DNA of 64,000 nt from an uncultured bacterium (GTDB lineage Bacteria > Patescibacteriota > Minisyncoccia > UBA6257 > 2-01-FULL-56-20). Positions within the stretch are counted from its first letter, which is position 1. The number at the start of each line of letters is the position of its first letter. Location of the stretch: positions 1,135-65,134 of the forward strand of contig CAVVHF010000018.1 of assembly GCA_963747905.1 (NCBI GenBank), read 5' to 3'. The notes beneath the pieces are model-generated. The model did no database searches. It worked only from the letters and a program-made list of their open reading frames with translations, and was not told the DNA's origin. Both the position numbers and the translations under genes were made by a program. Of this stretch, positions 9,925 through 19,769 are shown piece by piece.

Positions 9925-11409
9925 CTATCGCGGCGGCAGCGGGATGCCGTGAAAGGTCATCCATGCAGCCCCAAGCGAGGCCGGCAAAATAATCACGAGG
10001 AGGCAGACCGCGTAGGCCACTGCCAGCTTTACAAAACTTTCTTCCCGCGAATCCGTCTCCTTGCCTTTGACTGCCAGGCCAAGGCAGAAAAACGTCATCG
10101 CGAAGAACAGCAGGCGAAGCCCATTTGCTTCCAGCGCCACGACTTTTGCCGCGCGGAAGAATTGGGGCGAATGTAGCGAGAAAAACAACACCGTCCCGAA
10201 TGTGAGAACACACCCGAAAAGGAATTTGGGGAAGCGTACCCATATCTCGCCCACCCCGATCGTTTTGTCGGATGTTGCGTCAGATCGAAGTCGAAGTGCC
10301 CAGATGCCCGCGAGAAGTACAGCGAAGATCCCGATGAAGAGATCTATCTCCAACTTCATCGCGGTGGTGGTCATGAGAATCCACCCTGCCTGATAGCCCG
10401 CGCCCGTAACGGCAACAGCCTTTGCTTGGATCGCCGCCTCGGTTATCGTACCCGCTGCTACCGCCGCTCCGTCGGTCTTTACCGACATCGCCATGAAGCT
10501 TCCGGCGACCAGCGGCTCCTTGTACAAGAACTCACCGGCAACCATGGGAAGAACCACGACCTCGAGGACGGAGAAGCAAACCACGAGCGACGATACCATT
10601 GCAATGACCGCAGGACGGGCTTTGACCGCTGCGCCGATCGCGATCGCGGCAGCGACGCCGCAGATCGAGATCGCCGTCGCGAACACTGCGGCGTCCTCAG
10701 GACTCAAGTGAAAGACCTTGAGCATGACAACAAATACCAATATCCAATCGATCAAGTACACGACGACGACCGCAACGAATCCCCGAAACACGATGGTCCT
10801 TGCAAGATCCAGTTGCGTAGCGTTGTTCGTACCCGCGACCTGCACGGCAAGATAGGCGCCCAATAGGATGAGCCCGATCTTGATGTACAGATCCGCCTGA
10901 AAAGCCTGCAACGGCTTTTCTGTGGTCGCAGAAAAGAATCTGCGATTCCTGAAAGCGAGCCCGGCCAAAAGAAGCAAGACAAGCCCCGCCTCGCTGGTAA
11001 GCCCGAGAGACCATCCGATACCGAAGTCTTTCCGTCGATCGGCAGTGGCAGCGATGTAGCCGAAGCTGCCGATGAATAGCCCCGCCAAGCTGATCCAAAA
11101 AATCGCCGTGAACTCCGCGGCAAATCGCTTGAGGTCATATTTCAACAGCTTCGCGCCAGCCACCATGACGGCCAGCAAGAAGAGATACGTGCAGACCGCC
11201 GAGAGAAAACCCGGCATCCACACATAGCTCTTTGATATCGGAGCGAGCGACTTGGCCACATTTGTCCAAACGCTTACCCCAACTCCCCATCCAAGCGCAT
11301 CTCGGCCCGCGAGAGCGCCCACTAACGCCACGAAGAAAAGGAAAAGGCCCATTCCGAGAGCCATCCAATCCTCCTTAACGCCCGTCGCCAAACTTCTCCA
11401 TCTGTTCAT
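9925..11409 (-). CDS. polytopic inner-membrane protein of unknown function (at least 10 TM segments)
   Basis: 494-aa highly hydrophobic ORF; no catalytic motif recognised; the start may be M16 at 11364. Confidence 0.5.
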   Translation of the reverse strand: MNRWRSLATGVKEDWMALGMGLFLFFVALVGALAGRDALGWGVGVSVWTNVAKSLAPISKSYVWMPGFLSAVCTYLFLLAVMVAGAKLLKYDLKRFAAEFTAIFWISLAGLFIGSFGYIAATADRRKDFGIGWSLGLTSEAGLVLLLLAGLAFRNRRFFSATTEKPLQAFQADLYIKIGLILLGAYLAVQVAGTNNATQLDLARTIVFRGFVAVVVVYLIDWILVFVVMLKVFHLSPEDAAVFATAISICGVAAAIAIGAAVKARPAVIAMVSSLVVCFSVLEVVVLPMVAGEFLYKEPLVAGSFMAMSVKTDGAAVAAGTITEAAIQAKAVAVTGAGYQAGWILMTTTAMKLEIDLFIGIFAVLLAGIWALRLRSDATSDKTIGVGEIWVRFPKFLFGCVLTFGTVLFFSLHSPQFFRAAKVVALEANGLRLLFFAMTFFCLGLAVKGKETDSREESFVKLAVAYAVCLLVIILPASLGAAWMTFHGIPLPPR

Positions 11410-12331: not shown

Positions 12332-12372
12332 GCAAATGTACAGTTAACACCAGGAGGTAACTCTTGCGGCGG

Positions 12373-13280
12373 CAAGGGGTGACGGTGTTCACTGGAACTA
12401 TGAACAACCAACCAACACCGTACGGCAAAGAGCTCCGTCTCCGGTGGTACCGTCTTGTCGAACGGGATCATCGGATGGTCGGAGATGTTTGCCAAACTTT
12501 CGGTATTCCCAAGAAGACATATTACAAATGGTACGCGCGGGATCACGGTTACGGATCAAACGATCACCGGAGCCGGAAGCCCGACGCCAAGACCAAGCTC
12601 GTACCGGATCTCGTCATGTGGATTGTGGAACGGAAGAAGAAAACAAATTACGGGCCACTCAAGATGAAGCTCGAGATCGGGAGAGTCTTCGGACTTACGG
12701 TTTCAACGACGATCCTCTTTCGCCTCTATCGGCGCAAAGGGCTCATTCGAAAGCCCCAGCGAAAGCTCGGCTGGCATGCGCCGCTCAAGGAACCGCTCGT
12801 GATCAGAAAGCCAGGAGAAGGGGTGCAGCTTGATGTGAAATATGTGTATGAAGGAGGCACCCGCCATTACCAGTTCTCGGTCTTCGATCCATGGACGGAG
12901 CTGTATTACTTTCATGTGTTCAAGACGAGAGAAAGCAGGAATGCGGCGGCGGCGATCGAGGAAGCTGAACGATACTTCGGCTTTCCCATTATCTCCGTTC
13001 AGACCGACAACGGGAGCGAGTTCCGCGGCGACTTCCACGCATGGTGCGAAAAGCGCGGTCTTCCGCATTTCTTCATCCCCAAGAGTTCGCCCTGGTGGGA
13101 CGGCAAGGTGGAACGGGTCCATCGCACGATTGATGACGAGTATTATCAGAATCCGTTGCGGCCGTGGCACACGAGGGAGGAATGGCTCACTTACTACAAT
13201 ACCGAACGCATCCATCTCTCGATTGGAGGCATCACGCCGCGAGAAAAGGCCGATCAATATTTATCCACCGTCACCCCTTG
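12373..13280 (+). mobile_element. IS481-family insertion sequence (about 908 bp) bounded by perfect 15-bp terminal inverted repeats CAAGGGGTGACGGTG
   Basis: 15-bp perfect inverted repeats at 12373-12387 and 13266-13280 enclose a single DDE transposase ORF; no target-site duplication is seen. Confidence 0.6.
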
Positions 13281-13281
13281 A
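12400..13281 (+). CDS. IS481-family DDE transposase (N-terminal HTH plus rve integrase core)
   Basis: D(VQLDVKYV)...D(VQTDNGSEF)...E(GKVERVHRT) catalytic triad spacing; N-terminal HTH GIPKKTYYKWY; the architecture matches IS481 Tnp. Confidence 0.8.
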   Translation: MNNQPTPYGKELRLRWYRLVERDHRMVGDVCQTFGIPKKTYYKWYARDHGYGSNDHRSRKPDAKTKLVPDLVMWIVERKKKTNYGPLKMKLEIGRVFGLTVSTTILFRLYRRKGLIRKPQRKLGWHAPLKEPLVIRKPGEGVQLDVKYVYEGGTRHYQFSVFDPWTELYYFHVFKTRESRNAAAAIEEAERYFGFPIISVQTDNGSEFRGDFHAWCEKRGLPHFFIPKSSPWWDGKVERVHRTIDDEYYQNPLRPWHTREEWLTYYNTERIHLSIGGITPREKADQYLSTVTP

Positions 13282-14196: not shown

Positions 14197-14267
14197 GGGC
14201 CCATAGTAAAGTGGTATTACGCGGCATTCGCATTGCTGAGGCGGGAGTCCGATTCTCCCTGGGTCCA
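14197..14267 (+). tRNA. tRNA-Ala (anticodon CGC), atypical: 7-nt D-loop, 4-nt variable loop, T-loop TCCGATT, no encoded CCA
   Basis: Hand-folded cloverleaf: 7-bp acceptor with G3:U70 (the alanine identity pair), D-stem GTAA/TTAC, anticodon stem CGGCA/TGCTG, loop TTCGCAT, T-stem GGGAG/CTCCC, discriminator A. Confidence 0.5.
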
Positions 14268-14478
14268 CACCATCATTTTTTGCGTTTCGGCGCATTTCAA
14301 CACGGCCCATGGAAAATGGGTTTATGTACCGTCATTGTCCATAATACTGCTGGCATAATGCTTCGCTAGATGGCACCAATTGCTGCTTTAGGCAACATTT
14401 TGAGTGTTACCCGTACTTTGCCGGGATAGTGCCTCCGACCTTTGACTTCCTTTTATAGCAGAGTAGGATTCAAGACAA

Positions 14479-14988
14479 ATGAACGCAATTGCAATAAACG
14501 GGTCACTGACATTACTTGGTTGGCTCAATCTAAATCAGGACCTAGCACAATGGATGACCGTCGTGATTTTGATAATCACTGCTTATCTTGCATATCGGAT
14601 TGGAATAAAACAAAATTCAATAAACGAGTTGATTGAGAAAATTGAGGATTCAGCAGAAGTCTTTGCGTACGCAGCAAAGGGCAATAATCCCAATTTAACT
14701 ATCTGGGTTCTATTGGTAACAAACGTCGGGAAGGTGCAAATGTATATGAAGCGGTATACTGTCGAAACTCTTACCCCGATGGACGTCAACAACGCCCTGA
14801 TTCCTGCTGGACAACAGCAAAACGCATGGTATCAAATAGTATTACCGCCAATGGCTGTTAATACTATTTGTAATATTTCCCTCGAATTAGAAGATCACGT
14901 TGGGAGAATGTGGGAATCAAGCATTGATGCCACATTTTTTGGTAGTGGATGGACGACAAACGTTCATAAAATTGAGCAGGTTATATAA
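14479..14988 (+). CDS. hypothetical protein with one TM segment (first gene of the low-GC islet)
   Basis: 169-aa ORF in an AT-richer region; no motif recognised. Confidence 0.4.
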   Translation: MNAIAINGSLTLLGWLNLNQDLAQWMTVVILIITAYLAYRIGIKQNSINELIEKIEDSAEVFAYAAKGNNPNLTIWVLLVTNVGKVQMYMKRYTVETLTPMDVNNALIPAGQQQNAWYQIVLPPMAVNTICNISLELEDHVGRMWESSIDATFFGSGWTTNVHKIEQVI

Positions 14989-15071
14989 GTTAACTCGTCG
15001 CCGAAGGAGAACAGAATCAAGTTGAGAGTTTTTTCCTCAGCCTCGGAGTCGTTTTCAACGATCTAAAAGGC

Positions 15072-15713
15072 TTGATTCTTTTTGATACGATGCTAACGGA
15101 TGACTATGACCCATTGAAGCTCGGCGAGGTAACCGACCACTCTGGCAATTTTGCTGGCGTCCGGGTACAAATTCAAAAACTAATCGCAAGCACCGTAAAC
15201 GAATTCTTTCGACTACTCGACAGCCAATATGGCATCCTTGCCAATCCCGAATTTAACGAGTTATTGGTTCGTCTGGCAAAATCGGATAAGGAACTTTGGG
15301 AGGAACTTTTTGCTGCGACACATGGGGAACATCCAAGCGCAAATGCACTCTTGAAAACACTTTTGTATATCCGCAACAACGTTGCTTTTCACTATGACCA
15401 ATCAGGGAAGGCTCTGACAAAAGCCTACGTCAGCAAATTCTTCGGCAAAGCAGACGATGCAACCAGAGACTCCGCCTATTACTCAATAGGTAACGACATG
15501 GGAGAAACCAGATTCTATTTTTCTGATGCTGCGGTTGAGGAAGCTCTCTATTTGGGAGCAGAGAAAACTTTCAAGGAAAAAAGCGTTGGAGACCCTTCTT
15601 TCGAGAAATATCAAGCGGAAGTAAGAGAAACTGTCGGGAAGATGAACGGTGCTATTACATCGCTTATGAAAAAATATATACAGTCACGTCGGAGTCGTCG
15701 CTCGTCTGCTTAG
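15072..15713 (+). CDS. hypothetical soluble protein with an R-x5-H motif (RNNVAFH), a possible HEPN-like nuclease (speculative)
   Basis: 213-aa ORF in the low-GC islet; only the short motif supports the HEPN idea. Confidence 0.45.
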   Translation: MILFDTMLTDDYDPLKLGEVTDHSGNFAGVRVQIQKLIASTVNEFFRLLDSQYGILANPEFNELLVRLAKSDKELWEELFAATHGEHPSANALLKTLLYIRNNVAFHYDQSGKALTKAYVSKFFGKADDATRDSAYYSIGNDMGETRFYFSDAAVEEALYLGAEKTFKEKSVGDPSFEKYQAEVRETVGKMNGAITSLMKKYIQSRRSRRSSA

Positions 15714-16339
15714 TCTCCAATCAAACAAAAATCGAGTTGCTCTCTAGGAATACCGATGGAGAGGCCATATTTGATTGCCGGTTGCCACGACGCTTTATCG
15801 TCGTAGTTGAATCGGAATTGTTTGTCCTTAAAAAGTGCCACTACGTCTCGATCTCTCCAGAAGTGGGCATACCATCGGTTGTCCTTTATTTCTTTGGTAA
15901 TCTTCCTAAAATCCCCTTCATCCACCATGACGGTATGGAGATGCCATGGATCGTCGTCATCAGTCACTTCGGTTTTTAGCACCTGGAACGATTTCAGGAT
16001 TTCCGGATGGATGAGACTTTCCTCGACGATATTTCCCTTATACATTTTTTCTTTTGCGAAGAACAGGATGATGATCTCGATAAGTGTTGGGCATCCTAAG
16101 ACAAAGAGTGTAGCTATCGTCCAAGTATATGCGAGTATTAGCTGAACCAAATCCGGAAGATATGTTAGTGTCGCGAGAACGACACCGAGGATGGGAATGA
16201 CGAACACGCCGAGGCAGACCAACAACCATTCCCCTATCATTGTAAGAGATCGATCATTAAGCTTATTTTTTCTAAGCTGGTAGAGAATGTAAACGAACAA
16301 ATAGAGCCCGACAAGCACACTAAGTTGCACCGAGAGCAT
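15710..16339 (-). CDS. hypothetical membrane protein (N-terminal 4 TM segments plus an acidic C-terminal soluble domain)
   Basis: 209-aa ORF, convergent with the previous gene and overlapping it by 4 nt. Confidence 0.45.
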   Translation of the reverse strand: MLSVQLSVLVGLYLFVYILYQLRKNKLNDRSLTMIGEWLLVCLGVFVIPILGVVLATLTYLPDLVQLILAYTWTIATLFVLGCPTLIEIIILFFAKEKMYKGNIVEESLIHPEILKSFQVLKTEVTDDDDPWHLHTVMVDEGDFRKITKEIKDNRWYAHFWRDRDVVALFKDKQFRFNYDDKASWQPAIKYGLSIGIPREQLDFCLIGD

Positions 16340-16641
16340 GAGGGACTGCGCGTTAGTATGATTTGTGTGATGACGCCGAGGTTATAGAAAAGCACGGGGA
16401 AAAATAGCGAGATCGTGATTAGCAGCTGGAACCGACTCTCAATATCCTCCTTCATGCCCATAAGAATAGGACGTTTCGGAGATTTGTCCACCCAAATGGC
16501 TATTGCCGCCCACGACAACTCCGCCGATACCTTGTCAAACTGTCGACTTAGTTGTATGGTGCATTGGCTTACCGCTAATACTGGAAAGCCTTATCTCGTG
16601 CTAACCCCACGAATATGCACCTTCACAACAGGAGAAACACC

Positions 16642-17136
16642 ATGTCTGCTAACACCAGATCGTTCGAAACACGTCCAGCAAGGGCCTACAGCGAAACGCG
16701 GGCACGGCTCGCCATCCTCAGTGTAACGGCAGTCGAATTAATTCACAGCGGTGCCCGATCCCCAAACATGATCGAGGAACTGCTCTTTTCCCTGCAGCTC
16801 TTCAAGGAGGACCGGCTGAGCTCGGTTCATCCCATTGCACCAGTTGGCAAGGTGGAGCGGGATAGCTTACGGCGTGGATTGAAGGAGCAAATTGCCCAGG
16901 AAGGCGAGGATGTCGTCTATCAAGCATTTCTGAACGAGCTCCCACTGCGCATTCAGACAATCCTATGCGGGTTGGGGATCCGAACCTTTCATGAACTCCT
17001 TCGGAGCAACAGATTCAAAATCACTTCGGCACGAGGCTCGGGGCGTAAATGCGCCGAGATGCTTGAAGAGGTCATGGCACGATACGGCCTCAGCTTCACG
17101 TTGAACGAGGAACAGATCGCGGGGCTCTTCTCCTAA
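16642..17136 (+). CDS. standalone protein with a C-terminal RNA-polymerase alpha-subunit CTD-like helix-hairpin-helix domain
   Basis: LNELPLRIQTILCGLGIRTFHELLRSNRFKITSARGSGRKCAEMLEEVMARYGLSF aligns by eye to the RpoA alpha-CTD ([11 protein letters not shown]...[19 protein letters not shown]). Confidence 0.45.
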   Translation: MSANTRSFETRPARAYSETRARLAILSVTAVELIHSGARSPNMIEELLFSLQLFKEDRLSSVHPIAPVGKVERDSLRRGLKEQIAQEGEDVVYQAFLNELPLRIQTILCGLGIRTFHELLRSNRFKITSARGSGRKCAEMLEEVMARYGLSFTLNEEQIAGLFS

Positions 17137-17152
17137 GCGCCGCACAACAACA

Positions 17153-17185
17153 GACGGCCACTCTCATGGGTGGCCGCTTTATATT
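17153..17185 (+). terminator. rho-independent terminator (stem CGGCCAC/GTGGCCG followed by a U-rich tract)
   Basis: Read directly, 17 nt after the stop of the alpha-CTD-like gene. Confidence 0.5.
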
Positions 17186-17256
17186 TCTGTTGTCAAGAAC
17201 GACAACTCCGCCCGTCTTTTCAGGCGGGATCAAAGGCTTAGAATAAGCGCGGGGCG

Positions 17257-17475
17257 CTATTCTGACTTATTCTCTTTCTCTTTCCGGAGACTCTCCCTCG
17301 CAACCTCTCCGGCGAGGATGAGGTACTGCTTGAGATTCCGAACGGCTATTTCAAGCTCCTCTTCGCTGAAATTGGGAGAGAGTGTCCTAAGATATTCCCG
17401 AAGTTTTTCGTCCGGGTCTTTTTTGGCATCCATTGTATTTTGTGGTCCGACAAGTCCGCCGATATATACCACCAC
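17257..17475 (-). CDS. hypothetical small acidic protein
   Basis: 72-aa ORF with no motif; last ORF of the low-GC islet. Confidence 0.3.
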   Translation of the reverse strand: MVVYIGGLVGPQNTMDAKKDPDEKLREYLRTLSPNFSEEELEIAVRNLKQYLILAGEVARESLRKEKENKSE

Positions 17476-17519: not shown

Positions 17520-19769
17520 TTAGCTCTTTGCCGTCAATCCCTCCCCTTCCGGCTCCAGCTTGAGCGACACCACCTTCGAGCTCCCATCCTCGGCGAGGGT
17601 CACGCCATACAATATGTCGGCAGCTTCCATTGTGGCACGGTTATGAGTGACGACGATGAACTGCGTGTGTTTGGAGAAATCCTTGAGCATCGTGCCGAAG
17701 CGGCGTGTGTTGCGCTCGTCGAGTGGCGCATCGATCTCGTCGAGCACGAGGAACGGCGGCGGGCTGACGGACACCAATGCAAAGACTGCGGCGATACCAA
17801 CGAGCGATCGCTCGCCGCCGGAGAGCATGTCGAGTGATGTCGTCTTTTTACGCGGCAATTTTATCTCAATGTCCACGCCGCCGTTCTTTTCCTGATAGAG
17901 CTCATCCTCAGTTTGTTCGATCATTTCCTTCACGTCCCCACCTTCTTCTTCGTCTTCCTCATCCACAGCACGTTCCCCTTTCGGCTTCAATACTTTCAAC
18001 TTTGCCGATCCCCCGTCAAACATAAGCGCAAAGAATTTTGCAAACTCGTCGTTGATCTTGGAAAGCGATTTATCGAACTCGCTCTTGATCTTCTCGTTCA
18101 GTTCGCGCATGAGCGCGGTGAGGTCCGCGACGGCCTTGTTAAGGTCATCCGATTCTTTTACTAAAAATGCATGGCGCGTAGCAGTGTCCTCCGCCTCTTT
18201 CATCAACGCCTGATCCACTTCGCCGATGCTCGCGAGGTCGCCGCGCAGGCGGAATATCCGGTGCTCTATGTCAGCGCCCGTTGCGGCAACCGCATCTGCA
18301 ATCGATATGTCGCGAAATTCTTCCGCGCGGCGACCGGCCTGATCCACCTGACGCAGAACCTCGTCGCGGCGGAGGTCGAGCCGCTCCTTCTCAAGCAACA
18401 GTTCGCGATTGACTTTCTCCCACGCATCAAGCTTACCCTGTGTGGCCTGCACATCGGCGACGGCGCCTTTGAATGTTTTATAAAAATCTTCCTGACCGGA
18501 CTCCAATGCTTTTTCCTGCGCACGGAGCGATGCAATATTTTTTTCAAGATCGGACAGGTCTTTCGCCGCTTCTTCGAATTCCCGACGCAACGAGCTCGGC
18601 ATCGGCGCGCTCGTGGCCGCTTTGACAGAACGCGGTTCATCCTTTTCCTCAAGCGCGAAAGTTATCTCCTCGAGCACCGTCTCAATGGCAGCCTGCACCG
18701 CGAGTGGTTCCTCGTTCAATACCGACTCCAACTCCATTTTTATCTTTTCTAAAACATCGATAAGATTTTCCGCCGAGCGATCGCTCGCGTCGCGCGCGGG
18801 AGCGACCAAACGCTTCGCCATCTCGATCTGCGCCTCGATGCGACCGGCATCCTTTTGCAGCTTGCTCCGCGCATCCATGAGCGCGGCCATCTCCTCTTTT
18901 ATCTTGGCGAGGCGCTTACGCTCCTCCGGCTGGCTCTCTTCGATCGCCGCCTGGCGCGTTTCCGCCGCGCGCTTTTCTTTCTCAAAAACCTCACACTGTT
19001 TCGTATGCGCGGCGATACGCCCGTCCACCTGCTCACCCTTCGCACGTAGCTCGTGCAATTGCGAACCAAAAAAATGATTTTCGAGCGAACGCAGCTCTTC
19101 CTCTAACGCACCACGGCGTTCCCAGCGGCCCGTCTGGCGCTTGAGCGATCGCAAATGCGGCTCGATCTCTTCGATCAGCGCCGTCACTTTATCAAGATTT
19201 ATTTTACTGTTTTTTAACCTCCGCTCGGCATCGACTTTTTTGATCTGGAACTCCCGCAAACCGAGCATTTCCTCGATCATCCCGCGGCGTTCAAGCGGCG
19301 ACGAGCGGATAAAAAGATCGCTGTCCCCTTGCCCGATAACGACCAATCCACGCGAACCAAGCCGCGCCTTTGCAAAAAAATCGATAAGGTCGCGCAACAA
19401 TATTTCCGACTTGTTCAAATAATATTTGCTCTGCCCGTCACGCGTGATCTGGCGTGACACCACCACTTCCTCAAAATCCACCGGAAAGAACTTGTTCTTA
19501 TTCTCAAAATATAAACTTGCCTGCGCCATACCCACGCGCGCGCGCTTCTGCGTGCCGGCAAAGATCAGGTCTTCAACACGCGCGCCACGGAGGTTCTTTG
19601 CATCGCGCTCGCCCAACAGCCATCGCACGGCGTCCACGATATTCGACTTGCCGGAACCGTTCGGCCCGACGACCGCCACGATCCCCGCCGGAAATTCCAA
19701 CACCGTCTTTCCCGCGAAAGATTTGAAGCCGTTTAGTTCGAGCCGTTTGAGAAAATGGGATTCTGACAT
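17520..19769 (-). CDS. smc: SMC-family chromosome segregation ATPase, compact 749-aa form with no recognisable hinge domain
   Basis: N-terminal LKRLELNGFKSF plus Walker A GPNGSGKSN; C-terminal signature LSGGERSLVGIA plus Walker B LVLDEID; a roughly 500-aa all-helical middle; conserved rnc-smc synteny. Confidence 0.75.
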   Translation of the reverse strand: MSESHFLKRLELNGFKSFAGKTVLEFPAGIVAVVGPNGSGKSNIVDAVRWLLGERDAKNLRGARVEDLIFAGTQKRARVGMAQASLYFENKNKFFPVDFEEVVVSRQITRDGQSKYYLNKSEILLRDLIDFFAKARLGSRGLVVIGQGDSDLFIRSSPLERRGMIEEMLGLREFQIKKVDAERRLKNSKINLDKVTALIEEIEPHLRSLKRQTGRWERRGALEEELRSLENHFFGSQLHELRAKGEQVDGRIAAHTKQCEVFEKEKRAAETRQAAIEESQPEERKRLAKIKEEMAALMDARSKLQKDAGRIEAQIEMAKRLVAPARDASDRSAENLIDVLEKIKMELESVLNEEPLAVQAAIETVLEEITFALEEKDEPRSVKAATSAPMPSSLRREFEEAAKDLSDLEKNIASLRAQEKALESGQEDFYKTFKGAVADVQATQGKLDAWEKVNRELLLEKERLDLRRDEVLRQVDQAGRRAEEFRDISIADAVAATGADIEHRIFRLRGDLASIGEVDQALMKEAEDTATRHAFLVKESDDLNKAVADLTALMRELNEKIKSEFDKSLSKINDEFAKFFALMFDGGSAKLKVLKPKGERAVDEEDEEEGGDVKEMIEQTEDELYQEKNGGVDIEIKLPRKKTTSLDMLSGGERSLVGIAAVFALVSVSPPPFLVLDEIDAPLDERNTRRFGTMLKDFSKHTQFIVVTHNRATMEAADILYGVTLAEDGSSKVVSLKLEPEGEGLTAKS

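Follow-up and report, generated by a model that had tools for sequence, protein, structure and literature searches.

The target gene lies within a 64-kb stretch of DNA (referred to below as the window), and its features and the signals around it are collected in Table 1. It is a real small gene of a candidate-phyla-radiation-type bacterium. The opposite-strand ORFs across the locus are short, the GC content of the gene (0.547) is host-like and differs from that of an adjacent low-GC block, and in a near-identical strain (L010) the ORF is identical throughout, the differences elsewhere resembling assembly indels. A further in-frame ATG lies upstream at 16615; it is used as a start in no homologue and, since every homologue begins at MSA-TR, it was not taken as the start of the target. 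The gene is bracketed by a promoter-like site and a terminator-like hairpin, which suggests a one-gene unit. If this promoter-like site is used, the transcript would start at about 16567, at the foot of the first of the hairpins described below, and promoter-like hexamers were also seen by eye 5' of the hairpins at two other loci (L023 and L033).

Table 1. Features of the target gene and its leader, with positions in the window.
Feature	Position	Strand	Basis or remark
tRNA-Ala gene	14197-14268		upstream of target, before low-GC block
Promoter-like site TTGTCA, 17-nt spacer, TATGGT	16532..16560	+	consensus scan only
Hairpin 1: GGCTTACCG / CTAATAC / TGGAAAGCC	16566..16590	+	8/9 pairs, G.U closing pair; read from sequence
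Hairpin 2: TCGTG / CTAACCC / CACGA	16596..16612	+	unbiased hairpin listing, MFE fold, RNAalifold (18 loci)
CCTT (16620-16623) pairing with AGGA of the Shine-Dalgarno sequence	16620..16634	+	predicted; MFE and centroid folds
Shine-Dalgarno sequence AGGAG	16630-16634	+	7 nt 5' of target ATG
Target ORF	ATG 16642, stop 17134-17136	+	164 aa; coordinates agree with the earlier note
Hairpin 3: GTCTG / CTAACAC / CAGAT	16644..16660	+	from G of ATG to codon 6 plus one base
N-terminal module, codons 1-60	16642..16821	+	AF2 secondary structure, family alignment
Codons 61-98: lower-confidence linker (56-69), helices 70-87 and 89-97 before aCTD core	16822..16935	+	AF2 model, family alignment
aCTD-type (HhH)2 domain, codons 99-164 (core 99-154)	16936..17133	+	profiles, AF2 model, fold match
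Hairpins of the (HhH)2 domain: GLGI, residues 110-113; GSGRK, residues 132-136			read from sequence
Intrinsic-terminator-like hairpin followed by T-run	17155..17186	+	3' of target gene

Activators and UP-element DNA engage bacterial RNA polymerase mainly through the C-terminal domain of its alpha subunit (aCTD), and the earlier note had likened the last 60 or so residues of the target to this domain by eye. For the single sequence this resemblance was not significant, and profiles were needed: the target searched alone matched nothing in Pfam even at E ≤ 10 and did not reach the gathering score of PF03118, the NCBIfam RpoA model gave E = 0.02 (13.8 bits, residues 93-157), and phmmer against the PDB gave E = 0.23-0.9, with aCTD making up four of the six matches. 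An index of 5.8 billion proteins held only three close homologues of the target. When a profile built from the three closest homologues was compared with the PDB, RpoA accounted for 27 of the 34 matches and took all of the first 22 places (best E = 0.0055). When 1.84 billion representatives were then searched exhaustively by profile, 120 proteins were retrieved at E ≤ 0.001, and the profile of an alignment of 38 short-form relatives of the target (A3) matched aCTD chains in the PDB at E = 4.5e-14 over target residues 95-153. PF03118 itself was matched by 50 of the 121 retrieved proteins, and five proteins that carry the N-terminal module of the target (P0005, P0023, P0046, P0081 and P0040) lay above its gathering score, with 27.5 bits for P0005, 55 bits for P0046 and 68 bits for P0081. 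The claim of the earlier note was therefore borne out by the family profile and the N-module relatives, although not by the Pfam search with one sequence.

Structure prediction gave the same picture. AlphaFold2 run with the A3 alignment produced a model of the target with a pLDDT of 91.7, and Foldseek with a first, shallower model had already matched aCTD chains at a probability of 0.94-0.95. The predicted domain is a compact four-helix (HhH)2 fold that can be superposed on the solved aCTD; G-x-G can be read in both of its hairpins, and a conserved C-terminal helix, EEQIAGLF, follows the core. The resemblance is thus to a genuine diverged double helix-hairpin-helix domain and extends beyond a low-complexity helix, to which the earlier note had allowed it might be confined. 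Judged by these comparisons, the C-terminal half of the target is a diverged homologue of the aCTD that lies outside RpoA. The N-terminal alpha assembly domain (PF01193 / PF01000) is absent from the target, of which residues 1-98 are an unrelated helical module. A split aCTD, with a host RpoA that would lack its own CTD, was also considered; no rpoA gene was found within the 64-kb window or in the homologous loci.

The E. coli aCTD sequence used as a reference is consistent with the PDB alignments. We take the '265 determinant' for DNA binding to be R265, N268, C269, G296, K298 and S299 (E. coli numbering). The target keeps equivalents of R265 (R103), G296 (G134) and K298 (K136), as well as of E261 (E99); N268, C269 and S299 are replaced (by T106, I107 and C137, respectively), and the activator-contact (287) surface is not conserved. 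The pI of the domain is 9.8. DNA binding is plausible from its sequence, though the replacement of N268, C269 and S299 makes it uncertain. Compared with the aCTD of RpoA, then, the target has no alpha assembly domain and itself falls below the Pfam threshold, part of the 265 determinant and the 287-determinant residues are replaced, and there is an extra conserved C-terminal helix (E-I-E-x-x-F-G).

Residues 1-60 make up a helical-hairpin module, conserved but so far undescribed, by which a rare family is defined; most of its members are from Patescibacteria. The earlier note had described a fused, unrelated N-terminus of about 100 amino acids; this region is indeed separate from the aCTD-like domain, but it is not arbitrary, as residues 1-60 are the conserved module and residues 70-97 supply two helices before the aCTD core. 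In the AF2 model the N-module consists of a flexible tail (residues 1-10) and a helical hairpin (H11-36 and H41-55), and it ends in the motif (S/A)LQLFKE(D/N)RL, of which the target copy is ALQLFKENRLG. It was present in 97 of the 121 cluster representatives, invariably at the N-terminus, and it is the N-module, not the aCTD, that is the most conserved part of the family. Synonymous sites in the ALQLFKENRL codons are free to vary, so that the constraint there acts on the protein. By eye, helix 1 has many Ala and Leu residues on more than one of its faces, in the manner of bundle-forming helices. The architectures headed by the module include a short form with a single aCTD-like domain, such as the target, proteins of 340-410 aa with a canonical aCTD at the end, and proteins in which the module is joined to unrelated, unknown C-termini, some members having no aCTD at all.

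Comparison of the N-module with Pfam, NCBIfam, PHROGs and PADLOC gave no match, nor did profile and fold comparison with known RNA-binding folds in the PDB; a profile search for homologous proteins returned four short fragments only, and the non-aCTD C-terminal domains of P0034 and P0056 had no informative match in the PDB. One apparent hit of the N-module profile, to designer PPR proteins in the PDB (E = 1.5e-11), was rejected as a repeat-summing artefact: nine repeats, alike over 13 residues (LEEALQLFQEMK) and each with an E value of about 140, had been added up to give this score.

In species-representative genomes the family was found at eight loci (five in Saccharibacteria and one each in Kerfeldbacteria, Thermoanaerobaculia and a gammaproteobacterial MAG), and metagenome contigs supplied seven further loci, with one copy of the family gene at each locus. 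No relative of the target family was found in IMG/VR with either a peptide pattern or a DNA signature. Eleven IMG/VR matches to ATGTCTGCNAANACCAGA all lacked the N-module and were set aside as chance. For the target and most members, PHROG gave nothing significant (three weak matches, E ≥ 0.05) and PADLOC gave no match, the aCTD region of P0040 alone giving a weak match to PglW.

The mRNAs of the family carry two or three stem-loops of one type, whatever the C-terminal domain. In this type the stem varies and covaries, the closing pair is always G-C and the loop reads C-(G/U)-A-A-N-A-C. A copy extends from the G of the start codon to codon 6 (in the target this is hairpin 3, which encodes S-A-N-T-R), and the 5' leader of nearly every family locus has one or two more such hairpins with differing stem sequences. 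At the position of hairpin 3 the first six codons read ATG TCT GCN AAN ACC AGA in 14 loci, which range in GC from 0.38 to 0.60, and the synonymous sites are frozen; in the genome of the target, TCT, GCT and AGA are rare codons (8%, 7% and 2% of their respective codon families). The consensus of hairpin 3 is a stem (G)UCUG/CAGA(Y) with a loop C-N-A-A-N-A-C. In the alignment four of its five pairs covary and 97.8% of cells are paired, a value reached by none of 500 shuffles, and complete compensatory stems were found in L013 (UUUG/CAAA), L023 (UCCG/CGGA) and L012 and L021 (CCUG/CAGG). Thus MSA(N/K)TR is conserved down to its synonymous sites because hairpin 3 is encoded there. The stem UCUG/CAGA was nevertheless present in 13 of 18 loci, whereas the stems of hairpin 2 were many and much more variable, which suggests some coding constraint on Ser2 and Arg6 too. 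Gly is residue 6 of the N-terminal peptide in 17 of 58 members, and over the first 22 residues the net charge averages only +1.8, from which it can be argued that the peptide is largely a passenger.

Hairpin 2 showed compensatory changes in four of its five pairs, the closing G-C pair being the invariant one. RNAalifold, run on a MAFFT alignment of 18 loci, returned exactly hairpins 2 and 3, with eight of their ten pairs compensated; by pair count 97.2% of cells were paired and 31 cells had changed on both sides, which 0 of 500 shuffles matched. Hairpin 1 is the weakest of the three copies, since the MFE fold of the window RNA favours another pairing; the same hairpin was found in L001, with an A-U closing pair and the mismatch in the identical place. 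With stems of 4-5 bp the hairpins are short and, taken singly, weak, and the fold z-score of the whole leader was only -1.0. The strict loop motif occurred at 7.8 per kb in leaders against a background of 0.43 per kb, and a stem of at least 4 bp enclosed 24 of the 27 leader copies compared with 3 of 177 in the background (Fisher p = 8e-25). In Rfam 15 the window had no match at gathering scores and positions 16450-16760 had none at E ≤ 10.

Hairpins of this type were also found with the long form (L030 and L017) and with forms that have no aCTD (L031 and L032), and so they travel with the N-module. Within the 64-kb window the hairpin cluster is unique to the leader of the target, and 414 kb of flanking DNA, made up of short flanks in other genomes, held only three copies, which is the chance level. 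An all-against-all BLAST of the neighbours at 11 loci revealed no conserved operon partner, and the Pfam annotation of neighbouring genes was heterogeneous between loci. As the hairpins are absent elsewhere in the DNA examined and there is no conserved neighbour, the gene and its leader appear to be a self-contained cassette, as would be expected for autoregulation. Hairpins 2 and 3 stand on either side of the Shine-Dalgarno sequence, and the latter hairpin takes in part of the start codon. The three conserved stem-loops of the target mRNA look like a built-in control element. In many family leaders a pyrimidine stretch (CACCUU, ACCUU or CUUU; YACYUU-like) was seen by eye 10-25 nt 5' of the Shine-Dalgarno sequence; in view of the predicted pairing in the target (Table 1) it may be an anti-Shine-Dalgarno element and part of the control region.

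The reading that we favour, with a probability of roughly 0.4, is that the target is a two-module nucleic-acid-binding regulator with an autoregulatory translational operator that is read by its own product. The hairpins would form the operator around the ribosome-binding site, and the product, most likely through the N-module acting as a dimer or oligomer, would bind it and so provide negative feedback. The basic aCTD-like domain would contact DNA through the minor groove and backbone, as the aCTD does at UP elements, or alternatively would contact the transcription machinery. Loops that are conserved on freely varying stems point to a sequence-specific reader of single-stranded nucleic acid, and as the N-module gene is the sole constant companion of the hairpins, the simplest model is an operator read by the product. 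To our knowledge, aCTD-type domains are DNA binders or protein hubs and not RNA binders. A wider set of hairpin targets is possible, the searches having covered short flanks of other genomes.

Several translational operators that are bound by the product of their own gene share this layout. In the MS2 coat protein/replicase hairpin, the E. coli thrS operator and ribosomal-protein leaders, as in the target, short stem-loops whose loops are conserved lie on both sides of the Shine-Dalgarno sequence and extend over the start codon, and the cassette is self-contained and moves with its gene. The target differs from them in having three copies of one hairpin, one of which is dual-coding with a conserved N-terminus, in having a motif that is not in Rfam, and in that binding by the product is at present a prediction. 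For the N-module a parallel is offered by Rop (Rom of ColE1), likewise a helical hairpin of about 55-60 residues, which forms a four-helix bundle as a dimer and in that way binds RNA stem-loops. Unlike Rop, the module has no detectable sequence match or specific fold match, and whereas Rop binds kissing loop pairs, the hairpins of the target family show no mutual complementarity.

The hairpins could also be acted on by a different cellular factor, or by their structure alone. The corresponding reading, possible though doubtful, makes the target a small DNA-binding architectural or transcription factor composed of a dimerising helical hairpin and an aCTD-type minor-groove binder, with hairpins whose reader is a different host factor or that function unaided, affecting mRNA stability or ribosome access without any feedback from the product. 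Such a protein fits the aCTD homology, the equivalents of R265, G296 and K298 and the pI of 9.8; the bundle-like, Ala/Leu-rich helix 1 seen by eye in the N-module and the failure to detect a known RNA-binding fold also agree with it. It accounts less well for the RNA, as a conserved loop and closing pair on free stems need a sequence-specific reader and the N-module gene alone always accompanies the hairpins.

The earlier note had proposed a free aCTD mimic, possibly phage-derived, that could compete for UP-element DNA or activator contacts. As a decoy or modulator it would titrate such DNA, or activators and other partners that bind the aCTD, away from RNA polymerase. We consider this unlikely. 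The fold is that of a true aCTD and keeps the equivalents of E261, R265, G296 and K298, small stand-alone aCTD proteins do exist in phages (matches in BFVD), and the gene adjoins variable DNA; however, the 287-determinant residues are not conserved, the N-module is more conserved than the aCTD and some members have no aCTD, and the GC content of the gene is that of the host genome and not that of the adjacent low-GC island. The phage origin in particular found no support, since no family member was found in IMG/VR and neither PHROG nor PADLOC gave a match for the target, whereas an association with variable or insertion-prone DNA was seen in several genomes, where the family gene lies at its edge.

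Proteins with an aCTD outside RpoA are already known as database annotations, phages included. Examples are the 'RNA polymerase alpha subunit C-terminal domain-containing protein' of Rhodococcus phage Finch and the multi-repeat protein P0015. Like the target, such stand-alone or repeated aCTD proteins of phages and bacteria can be small proteins of uncharacterised function with an aCTD-type domain, but it is the aCTD part alone that they share with it (local Foldseek matches, none at E ≤ 0.001), and none has the N-module or the leader hairpins of the target family. P0015, P0037, P0098 and P0104, which have no relationship to the N-module family, are large (650-1,030 aa) and contain as many as ten aCTD-like repeats in tandem; with N-termini that by eye resemble signal peptides, they may bind DNA outside the cell.

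A bolder reading, to which we attach little probability, is that the N-module and its hairpins are a new and portable RNA-recognition cassette and the aCTD-like form is an RNA-tethered transcription factor. The helical-hairpin domain, possibly with an N-like basic tail, would read the G-C-closed CKAANAC loops, and the protein, once loaded on nascent RNA, would touch DNA or RNA polymerase with its spare aCTD. If true, bacteria that have very few classical regulators would possess an N/boxB-like mechanism, or one with a 'third alpha-CTD in trans'.

A closer analogy with phage lambda N, in which the arginine-rich N-terminal tail (S-A-K/N-T-R-R...) would bind boxB-like loops on nascent RNA while the remaining parts, the aCTD-like domain among them, would dock on RNA polymerase or Nus factors and alter termination or elongation, is weak and quite improbable. 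In the phage, nutL lies upstream of N and mediates N autoregulation, and the family hairpins likewise stand upstream of the regulator's own gene, with 5-bp stems and G-A-A-N-A in the loop. The loops CGAAAAC and CGAAGAC contain GAAAA and GAAGA, which are the lambda boxB pentaloops (boxB being a 5-bp stem closed by a GNRA-like pentaloop, G-A-A-N-A), and the variable loop position is the one that is extruded in boxB. The tail, of a basic A-x-T-R-R type and strongly basic in several members (e.g. P0028, P0036, P0056 and P0064), resembles the N peptides of lambda, MDAQTRRRERR, and of P22, GNAKTRRHERRRK, both of which are present in PMC3153931. Yet the peptide is a direct translation of hairpin 3, so that the resemblance may be a by-product, and the homology is limited to a 5-residue motif. 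In most members the tail is mildly basic: the S-A-(K/N)-T-R(-R) motif is present while K and R make up only 17% of the first 22 residues, where the mean charge is +1.8, position 6 is Gly in 17 of 58 and position 4 is often acidic. The loop, moreover, has 7 nt rather than 5 and is flanked C...C, its inner five bases matching GAANA in about half of the copies. Very improbable, finally, is that the N-module is a trafficking or docking tag on interchangeable effectors, after the fashion of polymorphic effector families, the aCTD-like form being exported onto a host bacterium: one N-module heads several unrelated C-termini, the gene is found in variable regions and Saccharibacteria are epibionts, but there is no signal peptide, secretion-system neighbour, immunity-like partner or conserved neighbour, and most of the C-termini are of the aCTD/HhH type and not toxin-like.

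It appears that neither the N-module nor the hairpin motif nor the coupling of the two has been described, as there are no database models and the library searched had no papers on them; the literature searches likewise yielded nothing on paralogues of PF03118 or on aCTD-like proteins from Patescibacteria. The analysis places one non-RpoA aCTD paralogue in a defined family with a new N-terminal domain and a new structured RNA motif. Dual coding is clear in this family, where the sequence of a conserved N-terminal peptide is set by an RNA hairpin. The family also warns that RNA can be what keeps a peptide motif at an N-terminus conserved. The regulator and operator that we favour make a directly testable protein-RNA pair in candidate-phyla-radiation bacteria, in which gene regulation is almost unknown.

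The surroundings of the gene vary. A tRNA or tmRNA gene lies close by in about four or five of ten contexts, which is too weak to call. The window has a GC content of 0.525, but in it the tRNA-Ala gene precedes a low-GC block (0.40-0.445) within 14197-16520, whose ORFs at 14479-14988 (+), 15072-15713 (+) and 15710-16339 (-) had no significant family match; an rve-type transposase ORF lies at 12364-13281. This arrangement looks like an inserted island that ends just 5' of the target promoter. In strain L010, positions 1-391 hold the 3' end of an IS30-like transposase gene (...HSWERGSNENTNGLIRRFFPKKTDF...) that abuts window position 16521, so that the end of a transposase replaces the low-GC block directly 5' of the target promoter. 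The 17-mer CGACAACTCCGCCGATA occurs on the plus strand at window positions 16513-16529, 17200-17216 and 17448-17464 (100%, 82% and 94% identity, respectively), against a chance expectation of about 0.2 matches per 64 kb. Its copies flank the target gene; two are intergenic, and the third lies 5' of an internal ATG (17433) of a small ORF, inside the 72-aa GTG-start frame. The breakpoint of L010 falls within the first copy. The motif was not found in homologous loci of other organisms, and it could be an operator or a recombination site.

The small ORF just mentioned is convergent with the target (17257-17475, -), encodes 72 aa from the GTG or 58 aa from ATG 17433, with much Glu and Lys, and is provided with a terminator-like hairpin of its own at 17208-17227; it had no family match, and no counterpart was found beside the family gene in other genomes. 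Beyond it lies an SMC gene (17520-19769, -), followed on the same strand by RNase III and NusB. Its product has only 749 aa, whereas a typical bacterial SMC has roughly 1,100-1,200, which suggests a much shortened coiled coil.

At other loci, too, the gene lies beside variable or insertion-prone DNA. In L001 (4000-13800) about 10 kb of mostly hypothetical genes separates tuf from fusA, which are normally neighbours, and this block contains a radical-SAM gene, a PIF1-like fragment, a MIP channel and the target homologue, together with a tRNA-Val gene (10720-10793). In one Saccharibacteria lineage (L013, 5547-5865, and L022, 7547-7865) the homologue starts about 130 nt after a tmRNA gene with the tag peptide ANSNRVPALAVA, and the leader hairpins lie inside the short gap between the two. 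In L005 (8612-9980) a pair of Fic and HTH_3 genes stands beside the homologue, and in L006 (2753-3360) HigB and HTH_3 stand there instead, a swap of toxin-antitoxin modules between rpoC and the family gene.
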